NCBI GenBank assembly: GCA_964552755.1
Contig: CAZKHX010000001.1
Coordinates: 18,007-82,006 of the forward strand
From: Candidatus Micrarchaeota archaeon
GTDB taxonomy: Archaea > Micrarchaeota > Micrarchaeia > Anstonellales > Bilamarchaeaceae
DNA: 64,000 nucleotides
Reading direction: 5' to 3'
A model generated the notes under the pieces. That model saw only the letters and a list, made by a program, of their open reading frames with translations, was not told the DNA's origin and ran no database searches. Numbering within the stretch: position 1 is the stretch's first letter; every line of letters begins with the position of its first letter. Shown piece after piece: positions 5,720 through 45,889 of this stretch. The translations under genes and the position numbers were made by a program.

Positions 5720-6789
5720 GATATGGCTCACGCTGAGTGCATCATTTTCCGAATAAAAATTCGGGGAAAAGATGACAACAGAAAATTTAGCGTATGTATT
5801 ATGCCTTTAGTAACTGCAGGCTGAAAGCCTCGCTTGCGCTAAGCTCTTACACCCCAGTTCTATCAAACGGATCTGTTATCCGCGGCCTTTGCTTATTCGT
5901 TTTGAGAGTGGCTTCGACCTTAGATGCTTTCAGGTCTTATCCACGTAGAGCGTAGCTGCCCAGCAATGCATTGATACAACTGGTCCACCAGAGGCTCCGA
6001 ATCCCTGTTCCTCTCGTACTCAAGGATCCTTACTCTCAATAAGCAACACTTCCTGAAGATACTACCGTACTGTCTCGCGACGTACTGAACCCAGCTCATG
6101 TGGGACTTTGATGGATGTACAACCCAACCCTTGGTGGCTCCTGCACCACCAGGATGTCCCAAGCCGACAGCGATGTACCAAGCCGCGAGGTCGATGTGTA
6201 CTCTCACCCGCGACGAGCCTGTTACCCCCAGGGTAGCTTGTTTGACAGCTTAAATCCCTACCAATAGGATATTAAGGTTCACTAAGCCCGGCTTTCGCCT
6301 CTGCGTTCCATGCTTTTAAGAACACAGTCAGCCCTGCATTTGTCTTTCACCCTCTACAGCGGATTTCTGACCCGCTTGAGCAGAGCATTGGGCACCCTTG
6401 TTTCCCTATCGAGGGCGTACCGCCCCAGCCAAACTATCCACCTGACGCTGTCCTCTTGCGAGTAAGCAATACCAGAATGATTAAGTGGTGTTACACTTTC
6501 GCCTCCACGCGGCCCGGAAGCCGCGCTTCGAAGGCTCCCACTTACTCTCGGTAACCACCCCGATACCACAACATCAGGCTATAGTAAAGCTCCATGGGGT
6601 CTTCGTTTCCCTCAGGAAGTCCCCGGCATGTTCACCGGGTAGTGAGTTCACCAGGTCCCAAGCAGGGACAGTGGGAGCGACGTTACGCCGTTCATGCAAG
6701 CCGCCAATTAAGCGGCGAGGTATTACGCTCACGTTGTTACTCGCTTCACAAGAAGCGGGGCCGGTCATTTCTGCCGGCCTCCGTGCATC

Positions 6790-7420
6790 GCTGCACGGGT
6801 CGGACTGTATCTTCGGCTTTCGCCGTCTAGCGTTCAGTCTCTGAGGATTCTAGATACTTCGGGATCGGTTTGCGGTTCATCTGGGAGATTATCCGGGCTA
6901 TCCGGTCGAGCCCTTCCCTCCGGAGGTGTTCCTTTTCCTCCATCATGGAAAGAACTTCTTCGAACAGCTCGAAGTTCCTGCGCTTGGAAGTCTGCAGCGG
7001 GTGTTCCTTGAAGAACTCAATGAGTTTCCTCAGGTTTTTCACCCCTCTCACCCGGAACTCCTTTCTGTCTCCATTGTTCTGGGTCACTTTGCCGAATCCG
7101 AAGTAATTCCGGATGCGGTAAAGAACTTCCTCATCGCGCTGGTGCTGCACCACCCTGAATTCGGGCAGCACAGTCCAACCGAGGGTCATTTTCCCGAGCT
7201 TGTTCAAAGCCACGTGGAAACAACCTTCTCCGTCGACGAAACCGGCAATCCACTCAGCATCCAGCCTTTCCTGCTGATTGCCTGCACCCATCGCTTTTTC
7301 ACCACCTTCACGAGCTCTGCAGCGGTTATTAACCGTTGCCTCACCGCATTTCCGGTGGTAGCGTGGGATACACAGGTATTCCAGCATATAGCTAGATTTT
7401 ACTAAGGCAACTTAATTCAC
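6790..7420 (-). mobile_element. 23S rRNA intron (domain IV, about E. coli position 1850-1930) carrying a homing-endonuclease ORF
   Basis: About 600-800 nt of extra sequence lie between 23S landmarks that are adjacent in uninterrupted 23S. The insert contains a LAGLIDADG ORF. Exact splice junctions were not determined. Confidence 0.65.
6827..7387 (-). CDS. LAGLIDADG homing endonuclease (single-motif, I-CreI/I-PorI-like) encoded in the 23S intron
   Basis: 'WIAGFVDGEGCFHV' is a classic LAGLIDADG motif. Size is ~150-185 aa. The true start is probably the internal Met (MGAGNQQ..., ~7291) or the ORF is read through from the exon. Confidence 0.75.
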   Translation of the reverse strand: MLEYLCIPRYHRKCGEATVNNRCRAREGGEKAMGAGNQQERLDAEWIAGFVDGEGCFHVALNKLGKMTLGWTVLPEFRVVQHQRDEEVLYRIRNYFGFGKVTQNNGDRKEFRVRGVKNLRKLIEFFKEHPLQTSKRRNFELFEEVLSMMEEKEHLRREGLDRIARIISQMNRKPIPKYLESSETER

Positions 7421-10025
7421 CTTAAGAGGGTCAGAGTTACCCCCGCTCTTTACCAGCCCTTCTTTCCCTTGGACAGGACTTTCAGGTACTGGCAGTGAGC
7501 AGGCGTCGACCATCGTACGCAGCCTTTCGACCTAGCGATGATCTGTGTTTTTGGTAAACAGTCGCACTCCTCCGGTCTGTGCCACCTGCCCTTTACACAA
7601 AGGCAGGCATCCCTTCTTCCAAAGTTACGGGACCATTTTGCCGAGTTCCCTTGCCTGGGTTATCCTGACACACCTGAGCCTTTTCAGCTAGGGGCACCTG
7701 TACTAGTTCTAGGTACGGTTTCAGAGGATCGGATCAGCTTCTTTTTCACGGGCCACTGGAATCAGCCGAAGAAATTCCCATTAAGGCCTTAATCCCCTTC
7801 TCCTCATAATAAGACTCCGGGGATTTATTGCCCGTAGACAGGGTCTCCCCTGCTCGGCCTATCCAAAAGCGTCGGAAACTGAACTTGCGTTGCCGCATCT
7901 ACCTCCAAAGGGCAGGAATATTAACCTGCTTCCCTTTCCTGCACTAGGAGTTACCTGTGCAGTTAGGATCGCCTAACCCTCAGCTGATTCACATGGCTGA
8001 GGAATCCGTGCCCTATCAGGTGTCCAGGGTTCTCACCTGGATATGCTGCTACTAACGCCAGGATATTCGTACCAGATCGGTCCACAGGAACTCACGCCCC
8101 TGCTTCTCACCAACCCGGTCGCCCCCCTACTCCATAGGCTTTTGGCCTGGGTAAGGTATCGGAATCCGGTTTAGCCCCGTCAATTTTCAGAATCTGCATC
8201 CTCGACTGGTCCGCTATTACGCGTTGTTTAGAGGGTGGCTGCTTCTGAGCCTACCTTCCAGCTGTCTTTGGATAGAGACTCCTTTACGATTAACACTTAA
8301 CCGGAATTTAGGGCCCTTAACCTCACGTACGGTCGTTCCCGTAAGGTTCTACAGGCTTACCCCGTAGAGCCCACCGCCTTCGTCTAAAGAGACAACGGAT
8401 TCGGAGTTTGATAGGAAAGTGACACCTTTCGGAGCCGCTCTTTCCAGTCAGTGCTCTACCCCGCTGTCATCCTCGGAAGACGCTGTGCTGAGACACATTT
8501 CGGAGGGAACCCGCTATTGCTGTGTTCGACAGGACTTTCACCCCTACACCCCGGTCACCCAAGGGGAATATACCACCACTGGTTGCGGGCTTCCACCAGC
8601 CGTCAGGCTGGCTTCACCCTGCCAAGGCGTAGATCACACAGCTTCGGGTCCGTAACATGTGACTGGTCCCCTTTTCAGAGGATGCCCCTCATTGCTTGCG
8701 GGCACTTGCTTTCGCTTCGGCTCTCGCCTTGCCACATGCCATGACTCCCTGGCTCTTGCTTCGAGAAGAAAGATACGACACTGGTTAAACCGCCTCGATC
8801 CCACCCTTGCGGGAGTTCACTTCGGCGGCCCTACCCTTTCGCGCCGTACCTGCCTGTTACCACGTAGTTTCAGGGTCTTTTCGCACCCCTCCCGGGGTCC
8901 TTTTCAGCATTCGCTCGCGCTACTCATTCGCTATCGGTCTAGTGCCCCATATTTAGACTTGGAGATTGGTCTCCCCATATTCCCGTCCTCAAGCCGGAGG
9001 ACGGTACTCTTCATGGATCGCTCCCTTCGCCTTCGCATACGGGACTGTCACCCGCTATGGTATGGCTTTCCATCCAACTTCTGCTCAGCTCAGGGATGCT
9101 CCCCGCCACATCTGCCCTGCATTGCTGCAGGGTATTCGGCTCGGTCTGACCGGCTTTCATTCGCCATTACTAACCGGATCCCAATTGGTTTCTTTTCCAC
9201 CCGGTACTAAGATGTTTCAATTTCCGGGGTTCTTACACCCTCAGCATAACCGAAGGTGCACCGTCAGATCCTAGGATCATAGCTTGCGTGCAGCTACCCT
9301 AGGCGTATCGCCGCTTACCGCGTGACCGTGCGGGCACCAGCCTAGCCATCCACTACGTGGATTGCAACATATCCAAACTTTCTGTTGCCATCTCTTCCTG
9401 AACGTGTTCGCGCATAAAGCGGTCTCAGTAGCTAATGAGCCGCAAAACCTTTTCAGGCCAATGCGCCGCTCTCCCCTGATTGAGGGGACAAGCTAAGTAG
9501 TCTCTTAGTCACCGCGCCATACATGCAGAGGGCGCTCAATAAGAGGTAAGCTAGATATATGAACATACGGCTATTTAAAGGTTTCGTCGGTCCGGAGACG
9601 GGCAGCAGCATTTTTCTTCCTTCTATAACGAAAGCCATTTAACCCCTATTTGCCATAAATAAGCAATTATGCTCGAGCGCATACCCTGATTGTGAAAGTG
9701 GTTGAAAAGAAAGAACACGGGGAGAATGGCGCAGCGAAGAAGCTGGAAGCGCTCGGAGTGGATCCGGCAAGCATATCCCGGAAAAAAGCTTCCATATCCT
9801 ATACTATCCTCGCCCTTTCAAAAGAAGGGGTTGAGCTGCCCATGTCCCTCTCGTTCCCCGATGTGAAGGCGGCAACGGAAGCAAGGCGGGCAGAGCTTGG
9901 GGGCGCGCGCATGGAGATGGCAGGGCGCCTCTGCTTCGGATTCAGCCCGGTGCAATAGGCACATTACAAATTTTTCAGGAAAAACAAAAAACTTAAAAGA
10001 ATCGCGGAATTTATGCTCTCGGTGC

Positions 10026-39911: not shown

Positions 39912-39943
39912 AACCACCCATCCAAATCAGAGCAGGTGTGAGC

Positions 39944-40282
39944 ATGATTGAGACCATGAAGGAGCTCAAGTCCGAATTGCGTGGGATAAGGCAGGACATA
40001 CGCAGGTCAGGGATGCGCGCAGACCCGGTGATAGTGGCCAGCTGGCTTGACAGGATGGTCATCTGCATGGAGAAGGCGATGGATTCCGTGGACCTCATGC
40101 AGGAGCGTGTTGACGTAATGAGCGGCCCCGCATTCAGGGCTTCGGGCGCGGCAAGGAAGGCGGGGGCGGGGAAGCCCGCGCGGAGGAAAGCCGCGAAGAA
40201 GCCCGAGAGGAAAAAAACTGCGAAGAAGAAAGCTTCCAGGGCGAAGAAGGCAAAAAGGCCTGCAAGGAAAAGGAAGAGGTAG
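39944..40282 (+). CDS. Small protein with helical N-domain and highly basic K/R/A-rich C-terminal tail
   Basis: '...KAGAGKPARRKAAKKPERKKTAKKKASRAKKAKRPARKRKR' is a histone-H1-like tail. Confidence 0.45.
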   Translation: MIETMKELKSELRGIRQDIRRSGMRADPVIVASWLDRMVICMEKAMDSVDLMQERVDVMSGPAFRASGAARKAGAGKPARRKAAKKPERKKTAKKKASRAKKAKRPARKRKR

Positions 40283-43565: not shown

Positions 43566-43680
43566 ACATTTTTCAAAAATTTATTTGCGGATTTTTTTGC
43601 GCAAAAGAACGGAATTCATTTGTTTTTGGGTTTTTTTGCGCGTTTTTTTGCAAAAAACAGCGAAAGGTTTATTTAATTAA
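43566..43680. repeat. T-rich repeat block with three copies of 'TTTTTTTGCGC'
   Basis: 'GGATTTTTTTGCGCAAAAG', 'GGGTTTTTTTGCGCGTTTTTTTGCAAAAAAC'. Candidate oligo-T terminators or regulatory repeats. Confidence 0.4.
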
Positions 43681-43706
43681 TTGCAATTAGTTCCCCAGTG
43701 ATTGAG

Positions 43707-43802
43707 ATGGCAGCAAAAAAGAAGAAAGCCACAAAAAAGAAAGCAACAAAGAAAAAGACCAAGAAGAAAACGACCAAGAAAAAAGCAAAGAAGAAGAGAT
43801 AG
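43707..43802 (+). CDS. Lysine-rich micro-protein (31 aa), paralog 1
   Basis: 'MAAKKKKATKKKATKKKTKKKTTKKKAKKKR'. Preceded by promoter-like 'GAAAGGTTTATTTAATTAATT'. Not in the ORF track (<60 aa). Confidence 0.45.
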   Translation: MAAKKKKATKKKATKKKTKKKTTKKKAKKKR

Positions 43803-43924
43803 GTCTTTCTAAGGTCGTGTATTCGGTCTTTCTTTGTCTAATTTTGTTTTTTCACCGCCCCAGAATTTTTGCCGCAGCGGAAAGGTTTAATTAGATTTCT
43901 GCATTATCTGCGCAGGTGTTTTGC

Positions 43925-44035
43925 ATGGCAGCAAAGAAAAAAAAGGCAACAAAGAAGAAAACAACAAAGAAGACTGCAAAAAAGAAATCCGCAAAAAACA
44001 AGTCCATGAAAAAGAAGGGCTGCAGCTGTTGCTGA
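43925..44035 (+). CDS. Lysine-rich micro-protein (36 aa) with C-terminal GCSCC, paralog 2
   Basis: 'MAAKKKKATKKKTTKKTAKKKSAKNKSMKKKGCSCC'. Preceded by the same 'GAAAGGTTTAATTAGATTT' element. Confidence 0.45.
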   Translation: MAAKKKKATKKKTTKKTAKKKSAKNKSMKKKGCSCC

Positions 44036-44131
44036 TTTCCCCCTAATTCTTCCTGATTTTTTCCGGGTCGGAGCAAGCATTCAAAGTTGCTGTGCGCAAT
44101 CCAGCTGGCAATTGCATTGGCGGATGCAAAG

Positions 44132-44215
44132 CGCCGGGGGTGGGATTTGAACCCACGAATCCTTGCGGAAAACAGGTTAGCAACCTGCCGCCCTGCCGGA
44201 CTAGGCGACCCCAGC
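44132..44215 (-). tRNA. tRNA-Ser(GCT)
   Basis: Reverse complement folds as acceptor GCUGGGG/CCCCGGC, anticodon stem CAGG/CCUG with loop UUGCUAA, long variable arm 'UUUUCCGCAAGGAUUC', T-arm GUGGG-UUCAAAU-CCCAC. Confidence 0.8.
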
Positions 44216-45783: not shown

Positions 45784-45889
45784 TGGGGCTGTAGGGATTT
45801 GAACCCTAACATGCAGGTTTCTTGAGAGAACTCCGCCGAAGCGGATCTCGCCTGGAGCCTGCCGCGCTACCTGGTTACGCCACAGCCCC
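45784..45889 (-). tRNA. tRNA-Trp(CCA) with ~33-nt intron
   Basis: Acceptor GGGGCUG/CAGCCCC, D-stem GCGU/GCGC, anticodon stem GCAGG...CCUGC, loop 'CUCCAG^intron^A', T-arm UAGGG-UUCAAAU-CCCUA. The intron is a hairpin 'GGAGAUCCGC-UUCG-GCGGAGUUCUC' with no obvious box C/D. Confidence 0.75.

Follow-up and report, generated by a model that had tools for sequence, protein, structure and literature searches.

Two paralogous polylysine micro-genes with their own promoters in a Micrarchaeota archaeon, candidates for nucleic-acid-binding polycations

Introduction

Protamines, the C-terminal tails of histone H1 and ScvA of Coxiella are short, low-complexity polycations that condense DNA by charge neutralisation. 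The protamines are Arg-rich and eukaryotic, and the cysteines of mammalian protamines are cross-linked by disulfide or zinc; H1 tails form part of a protein with a globular domain. The small basic proteins eL41 and bS22 are also Arg-rich, and they contain Trp, Leu or Met. In Borrelia, bS22 is a protein of about 30 aa with 61 % Lys+Arg that had been left unannotated and is an essential-gene candidate (no transposon insertions); its site is the h27/h44/h45 rRNA pocket, filled in eukaryotes by eL41 (PMC10618245). Only a few archaeal phyla have an annotated eL41 protein, which is a single helix of 25 aa (PMC9932298).

This study concerns two adjacent micro-genes, K31 and K36, in a 64 kb stretch of DNA from a Micrarchaeota genome (the window, meaning the whole stretch that was analysed). 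Their putative products would represent a new and extreme version of the known tiny polycationic nucleic-acid-binding peptides. If made, they would be among the most extreme gene-encoded polycations in nature, with a charge of approximately +20 in 31 residues. Every gene retained in the minimal genomes of DPANN archaea carries information, and confirmation of the peptides would give these organisms a new component, either of the ribosome or of chromatin.

Composition and genomic setting of K31 and K36

The K31 gene is located on the forward strand at 43707–43802 and encodes a polylysine peptide of 31 aa (MAAKKKKATKKKATKKKTKKKTTKKKAKKKR) with 19 Lys, one Arg, no acidic residues and a charge of about +20. 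The K36 gene lies downstream on the same strand (43925–44035) and encodes a 36-aa polylysine peptide (MAAKKKKATKKKTTKKTAKKKSAKNKSMKKKGCSCC) with a charge of about +17 and the C-terminus GCSCC. Lysine accounts for 61 % of K31 (19 of 31 residues) and 47 % of K36 (17 of 36), proportions that are far beyond chance given an average of 5.8 % for the long ORFs of the window, and Lys and Arg together make up 65 % of K31 (20 of 31). A preliminary description of this DNA had reported two Lys-rich micro-ORFs of about 60 % lysine at this position. The coordinates and sequences were confirmed, as was the GCSCC ending, but the percentage is accurate for K31 only. Besides Lys and Arg, the two peptides consist of Ala, Thr, Ser, Asn, Gly, Cys and one internal Met. 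Neither contains Leu, Ile, Val, Phe or Trp, and neither has an N-terminal signal sequence. The terminal sequence of K36 is KKKGCSCC, with three Cys within the last four residues, and K31 is devoid of Cys.

The pair is flanked by an orphan gene of 332 aa (g332) and by a tRNA-Ser(GCU) gene on the reverse strand (44131–44215) that is convergent to K36, and an 84-aa gene (g84) sits downstream. Information-processing genes surround the locus, namely the genes for prolyl-tRNA synthetase (ProRS) and RpoK and three tRNA genes. The window as a whole carries an archaeal 23S rRNA gene and four tRNA genes, and its ProRS is 62–65 % identical to homologues in Candidatus Micrarchaeota metagenome-assembled genomes. 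The K31/K36 locus is near-clonal in several hypersaline-sediment metagenomes (JGI, ENA and Logan); samples containing the organism include JGI 3300017963, 3300017971, 3300017991 and 3300018080 and ENA ERZ272567xx.

Expression signals of the two genes

The 10-mer GAAAGGTTTA has just two exact matches across both strands of the 64 kb, at 43662 and 43880. Each copy is situated 45 nt upstream of the ATG of K31 or K36, respectively, and the intervening sequence differs between the two. The putative K31 promoter (43660–43679, forward strand) consists of a BRE, GCGAAAGG, and a TATA box, TTTATTTAA, starting at 43668, and the putative K36 promoter (43878–43896, forward strand) of a BRE, GCGGAAAGG, and a TATA box, TTTAATTAG, starting at 43886. 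A longer promoter string had been attributed to both genes in the preliminary description. This string is exact in the first copy only (GAAAGGTTTATTTAATTA), the second copy being GAAAGGTTTAATTAGATT. Other genes of this organism have a GAAA-nn-TTTAWWWA pattern (GAAA-nn(n)-TTTAAAAA-like boxes) 30–45 nt before the start, and the promoters of its tRNA genes read A(A/T)GGTTTTTAA. As the GAAAGGTTTA element matches these gene and tRNA boxes, it is best interpreted as a BRE/TATA promoter in a form close to that of the tRNA promoters, in agreement with the BRE/TATA-like character first ascribed to it.

Shine–Dalgarno-like sites were present 4 nt before the ATG of K31 (AGTGAT, 43697–43702, forward strand) and 6 nt before that of K36 (AGGTG, 43914–43918, forward strand); the consensus upstream of operon-internal genes in this organism is AGGTGAT. 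Termination at oligo-T tracts is established for archaeal RNA polymerase. Likely terminators of this type are the T-run TTTTGTTTTTT that follows K31 (43842–43852, forward strand) and the T6 run that follows K36 (44057–44062, forward strand), beyond which lies tRNA-Ser(GCU). As judged from the sequence, each of the two genes forms a monocistronic unit of its own, approximately 150 nt long and with a short leader.

Evidence for coding from paralogue and strain comparisons

The two genes were aligned without gaps over their 31 shared codons and differed at 5, 3 and 18 sites at codon positions 1, 2 and 3, respectively (P=1.2e-5, Fisher's test). The same distribution was apparent in the first 16 codons, with 1, 0 and 7 differences. 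An alternative Lys codon was used in 10 of the 16 aligned Lys–Lys pairs, and the motif MAAKKKKATKKK-TKK was preserved between K31 and K36, the conservation extending beyond Lys content to amino-acid order. Synonymous sites thus look saturated in genes whose amino-acid order has been kept, which suggests an old duplication under protein-level constraint. The ATG, Shine–Dalgarno-like site, stop codon and promoter are identically spaced in both copies.

A strain with approximately 97 % identity (L210) was found through the 84-aa gene, the search with this gene having yielded this strain only. Divergence in L210 was 4.6 % at the 3′ end of the 332-aa gene, 7.5 % in the 84-aa gene and 12.6 % in the spacer between K36 and the tRNA gene. 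There were no differences in the K31 ORF (0 of 96 nt), the K31 promoter was invariant, and only one difference was found in 351 nt (43574–43924) comprising K31, its 5′ region and leader and the promoter of K36; the 122-nt spacer holding the latter has one difference. At the rate of the flanking genes, approximately 19 differences would be predicted in 351 nt, with a probability of one or fewer in the order of 1e-7 by a rough Poisson estimate. Recent recombination between the strains could be an alternative explanation for the low divergence around K31. The K36 gene of L210 has three synonymous and three conservative changes (K4R, T9A and N25S) and an intact ORF length, and the GCSCC tail is retained with a synonymous change of TGT to TGC.

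These data bear on whether the tracts are coding at all. It could be argued that A-rich tracts in this region are non-coding DNA, acting as T-rich terminators for tRNA-Ser on the other strand or as promoter-flanking sequence, and that the ORFs are incidental. The sequence is indeed of low complexity, the Lys codons read as T-runs on the minus strand and could terminate transcription from tRNA-Ser, and the protein databases searched yielded no homologue. However, this explanation is contradicted by the substitutions between the copies, which follow a three-base period. The identical spacing of signals in the two copies and the retention of Cys codons through synonymous change also argue against it, as does the position of K31, which is more than 300 nt from the tRNA gene. 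The database negatives are uninformative on this point for reasons given in the next section. We consider a non-coding origin very unlikely. The codon-position pattern between the paralogues and the conservation between strains instead indicate that K31 and K36 are, by all sequence criteria applied here, genuine protein-coding genes under protein-level selection with complete expression signals, and they uphold the proposal made in the preliminary description that these are real small genes.

A further alternative is that only the act of translation matters, the ORFs serving as sensors (Lys-codon-rich leader peptides or ribosome-stalling elements) whose peptide product is irrelevant. There are 19 and 17 Lys codons in the two genes, and AAA accounts for 42 % of these vs 28 % in ordinary genes; an avoidance of long A-runs through Lys codon choice was not significant. 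Polylysine and poly(A) tracts are known to slow ribosomes (PMC9207662). Two bacterial polylysine genes, described below, are located upstream of a lysA-like decarboxylase gene. However, there is nothing downstream of K31 or K36 to regulate, since K36 is followed by the T6 run and the convergent tRNA-Ser, and K31 by T-runs and a second full promoter; the lack of a downstream gene in the same orientation makes a leader-peptide role unlikely. The paralogues have also kept the exact amino-acid order and not merely the Lys content, and the two bacterial genes each have their own hairpin terminator upstream of a decarboxylase with its own promoter-like site. A purely regulatory role is therefore regarded as extremely improbable.

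Gene calls, database searches and orthologues

The preliminary description had stated that these ORFs are missed by standard ORF callers. This was not the case for the public contigs on which gene callers had predicted the 36-aa gene (17 contigs) or the 31-aa gene (nine contigs), but it did apply to the divergent strain L210, in which neither K31 nor K36 was called as a gene. As the calls come from independent assemblies, they form a third line of evidence for coding.

Protein-level searches were uniformly negative. Neither peptide was present in a collection of approximately 15 billion proteins, a search for protein homologues with a 45-aa extended form of K36 returned nothing, and an HMMER profile of K36 and K31 had no matches among 1.84 billion representatives. 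No match to K31 or K36 was detected in Pfam at E≤0.01 or at E≤10, where the HMMER composition filter may hide weak ones, nor at E≤10 in NCBIfam (including its ribosomal models), PHROGs or the sequences of PDB chains. A Foldseek structure search likewise returned no match. However, ten tiny Lys-rich ORFs (28–76 aa) were looked up in the 15-billion-protein collection and none was present (0 of 10), and negatives from protein databases therefore carry little weight for genes of this type. There may be a systematic blind spot for tiny Lys-rich genes in databases and assemblies.

Orthologues were sought at the DNA level in other Micrarchaeota. No Lys-rich micro-ORF was found in approximately 130 kb around ProRS in ten other Micrarchaeota genomes, where synteny has been lost and no neighbours are shared. 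A ProRS scan of GTDB genomes returned Micrarchaeota homologues of 62–65 % identity whose neighbours are not conserved, and the orphan 332-aa gene had one homologue (69 %) on a contig that ends 72 nt past the gene. The closest relative (L032 and L217; 79–92 % DNA identity; ENA ERZ23498360/61, sample SAMN12687858) is represented by two short scaffolds, scaffold_375391 and scaffold_420445, ending at window positions 43634 and 44435, respectively, and the K31/K36 stretch of approximately 800 nt falls exactly in this assembly gap. This relative, more distant than strain L210, was also reached by an exact look-up of RpoK, on a contig that stops inside the 84-aa gene. It had been proposed at the outset to search other archaea for MAAKKKK micro-ORFs behind the same promoter. 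None was seen in the 130 kb of the ten Micrarchaeota genomes, and a comparable archaeal gene (L135) was recovered from the metagenome scan described next.

Polylysine micro-ORFs in bacteria, phages and one other archaeon

Metagenome contigs were scanned with the pattern M-A-x-KKKK-xx-KKK-xx-KK. The scan yielded at least 110 complete ORFs, at least 80 of which had a length of ≤80 aa and ≥45 % Lys; of these, at least 47 were not simple homopolymers. Many of the polylysine micro-ORFs among the matches listed have AAGGAGG-type ribosome-binding sites, sigma-70-like promoters and hairpin-T terminators, and many sit between convergent or divergent genes. The stand-alone bacterial genes are 19–51 aa long with strong Shine–Dalgarno sites and are found on contigs of 26–68 % GC (for example, L100 10783–10869, L194 2201–2287 and L186 1969–2070, with further loci on L130; L125; L090/L207/L108; and L156/L192/L199/L203/L174/L201). 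Three groups of orthologues, A, B and C, could be compared and had 8/0/22, 0/1/6 and 3/1/8 differences, respectively, at codon positions 1/2/3. Change was thus mainly at third positions, indicating a synonymous bias.

The sole archaeal locus among the matches listed was a 32-aa ORF (MARKKKKTKKKKTAKKKKAKKKKAKKRKKKKK) on the reverse strand of contig L135 (249–347), which is followed by T-runs after the stop codon and preceded by a BRE/TATA-like element (GAAAATTTAAATAG) 39 nt before the ATG. Its neighbour is a radical-SAM wyosine enzyme of the Taw1/Tyw1 type. One bacterial ORF of 20 aa (MAKKKKKEGKKKGKKKGCCK; L170 1058–1120) has a Cys pair near the C-terminus. It was the only other polylysine micro-ORF with a Cys pair among the matches listed and recalls the GCSCC of K36. 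Two further bacterial genes, of 28 aa (L155 4158–4244) and 76 aa (L166 4741–4971), are orthologous and are situated 250–310 nt upstream of a lysA-like ornithine/diaminopimelate decarboxylase gene, each with a terminator hairpin of its own. A role as lysA leader peptide was considered for this pair and rejected on the basis of the intervening terminators, the promoter-like site of the decarboxylase gene and the lack of a lysine riboswitch.

The same pattern had at least 33 matches on viral contigs (IMG/VR, L220–L251), at least 30 of which were polylysine ORFs of 12–27 aa (for example, L221 1118–1183, L222 4300–4368, L224 and L237). One such sequence, MAKKKKKKGKKKNKKKGKKK[KR], was found on at least about nine contigs, and another example is MAKKKKKAKKKKKAKKKKKR. 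The viral ORFs that were inspected lie in operons, and most have an AAGGAGG-type ribosome-binding site. Neighbouring genes at some of these loci are phage genes, encoding ribonucleotide reductase, head morphogenesis and major head proteins, DNA polymerase, endolysin and exonuclease. The viral polylysine ORFs had no match in PHROGs. On three contigs (L221, L233 and L247), a Lys run also closes the sequence directly upstream, and these ORFs may be in tandem. The motif MAAKKKKxxKKK was rejected as a family marker, since it also forms the N-terminus of an unrelated marine-phage protein. This family (L033–L078, IMG/VR) consists of proteins of 57–58 aa in which MAAKKKK(x)2KKK is followed by a conserved domain (...PTNPALYARVKAEAKKKFKVYPSAYANGWLVREYKKRGGGY); it has the first seven residues in common with K31 and K36 and is otherwise unrelated to them.

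The stand-alone polylysine micro-ORFs (16–76 aa) resemble K31 and K36 in their MA(A/K)KKKK start, in their periodic KKK-xx build and in having their own expression signals. They differ in that most are bacterial or of phage origin, with bacterial Shine–Dalgarno sites and hairpin terminators. Common ancestry with K31 and K36 cannot be argued because the sequences are so simple. K31 and K36 nevertheless appear to fit a recurrent kind of gene. Among the matches listed, stand-alone polylysine genes are frequent, most notably in phages, and they are uncatalogued; no description of such genes was found in the literature searched. If the peptides are made, the occurrence of similar genes in bacteria and above all in phages, yet not in Pfam, NCBIfam, PHROGs or the 15-billion-protein collection, would point to a blind spot. 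We tentatively raise the possibility that K31 and K36 are archaeal members of a large, uncatalogued and functionally coherent class of polylysine micro-proteins (16–80 aa; MA-KKKK-xx-KKK-xx...) distributed over archaea, bacteria and many phages. Such proteins would act as genome- or ribosome-bound charge neutralisers and would have been missed through length cut-offs and low-complexity filters, and K36 would be a Cys-tailed variant that is cross-linkable or anchored.

Proposed function as nucleic-acid-binding polycations

AlphaFold2 (AF2) predicted K31 as a single helix spanning residues 2–30 (pLDDT 94) and K36 as a helix spanning residues 6–30 with a coil tail (pLDDT 75). The confidence of AF2 for a lone polylysine helix says little, and a helix is plausible only in the polyanion-bound state. 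With net charges of about +20 and +17 and no hydrophobic residues, neither peptide would be able to fold alone.

The preliminary description had proposed association with the nucleoid or the ribosome, and metal binding or lipidation of GCSCC, as possible roles. The function most consistent with this composition and with known precedents is, by analogy, the binding of nucleic acids. We infer that K31 and K36 are old paralogous micro-genes with their own promoters that encode nucleic-acid-binding polycation peptides, and we place the probability of this reading at roughly 0.55. From its own BRE/TATA promoter, presumably a strong one, each gene would yield a monocistronic mRNA of approximately 150 nt, to be translated into a peptide made up almost purely of Lys, Ala and Thr. 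The peptides would become helical on a polyanion, which may be rRNA, other RNA or DNA, and the resulting charge neutralisation would stabilise or compact the nucleic acid. The GCSCC tail of K36 might link molecules to one another through disulfides or through jointly bound metal ions, or might tether the peptide, in which case K36 could be a simple natural polycation that can be cross-linked or anchored.

The protamines, H1 tails and ScvA offer one comparison. Like these, K31 and K36 are low-complexity polycations without a hydrophobic core, and the GCSCC of K36 could form cross-links as protamine cysteines do. There is, however, no homology to any of them, and DNA binding by K31 and K36 is putative.

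The other comparison is with eL41 and bS22, single helices of 25–33 aa without a globular fold that contain approximately 60 % or more Lys+Arg, bind rRNA and are often unannotated. K31, with 31 aa, 65 % Lys+Arg and one predicted helix, has a similar size, charge and form. This raises the possibility of a tiny ribosomal protein that is specific to the lineage: K31, and perhaps also K36, would occupy the conserved h27/h44/h45 intersubunit pocket as a functional analogue of eL41 and bS22 in an archaeon without a recognisable eL41. Such a role would be in keeping with the near invariance of K31 between strains, the resemblance of its promoter to tRNA promoters and the proximity of ProRS, RpoK and three tRNA genes, as well as with the frequent lack of annotation of bS22 and eL41 and the patchy occurrence of eL41 in archaea (PMC10618245, PMC9932298). 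However, neither peptide matched Ribosomal_L41 or the NCBIfam ribosomal models even at E≤10, and no sequence relationship was detectable. The Arg, Trp, Leu and Met positions of these families are absent from K31 and K36, which are nearly pure Lys/Ala/Thr, and a pair of divergent paralogues, one with a Cys tail, would be unusual for a ribosomal protein. Membership of eL41 or bS22 is thus unsupported by sequence, the resemblance concerning a possible mode of action only, and a ribosomal role is possible but doubtful.

A target other than nucleic acid was also considered. DPANN archaea live attached to host cells, and the peptides might be directed at a membrane or at the host, with K36 anchored by Cys lipidation and its polybasic stretch lying on acidic lipids, or with both peptides serving as cationic effectors or antimicrobial-like peptides acting on the host. 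The eukaryotic proteins K-Ras4B and Rab have tails in which a polybasic stretch is combined with C-terminal Cys (CC or CXC in Rab) that are modified by prenyltransferases. In K36, similarly, a Lys run leads directly into the terminal CSCC, a sequence in which both CXC and CC can be read, and the bacterial ORF MAKKKKKEGKKKGKKKGCCK shows a polybasic sequence with Cys once more. The tails of K-Ras4B and Rab are, however, attached to folded G proteins, whereas K36 is 'tail' only, with no G domain. To our knowledge, there is no machinery in archaea for prenylation or palmitoylation of C-terminal Cys, including the prenyltransferases of small GTPases, and none was apparent in the 64 kb of the window. 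Neither K31 nor K36 has a signal peptide or a hydrophobic or amphipathic face, K31 lacks any Cys, and a Pfam scan of the neighbours revealed no export, transporter or modification genes adjacent to the pair. The antimicrobial-like function mentioned in the preliminary description is weakened by the same observations, and we regard a membrane- or host-directed role as unlikely. Nucleic-acid binding is retained as the preferred reading for K31 and K36.

Other features of the window

A small gene directly upstream of ProRS (39938–40282, forward strand) has no Pfam match and encodes a protein with a Lys/Arg/Ala-rich C-terminal tail of 40 residues (KAGAGKPARRKAAKKPERKKTAKKKASRAKKAKRPARKRKR), indicating that H1-like basic tails are also present on ordinary proteins in the window. 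The 23S rRNA gene (5788–9376, reverse strand) is approximately 600 nt longer than the Rfam model and contains, on the same strand, an ORF for a LAGLIDADG homing endonuclease of 186 aa (6827–7387). The extra length and this ORF together make an rRNA intron probable. Neither a 16S nor a 5S rRNA gene is adjacent to the 23S gene. A tRNA gene of 106 nt (45784–45889, reverse strand) was detected by Rfam and missed by ARAGORN, and for this reason it probably contains an intron. In its longest reading, a bPH_2 ORF extends at its 5′ end into this tRNA gene, and its true start must therefore lie further in. Between the 332-aa gene and the K31 promoter, there are three copies of TTTTTTTGC(G/A) (43593–43652). 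Strain L210 shows no change in them, and the 79 % relative L032 retains them in part; these repeats may be terminators of the 332-aa gene or elements that flank the promoter.
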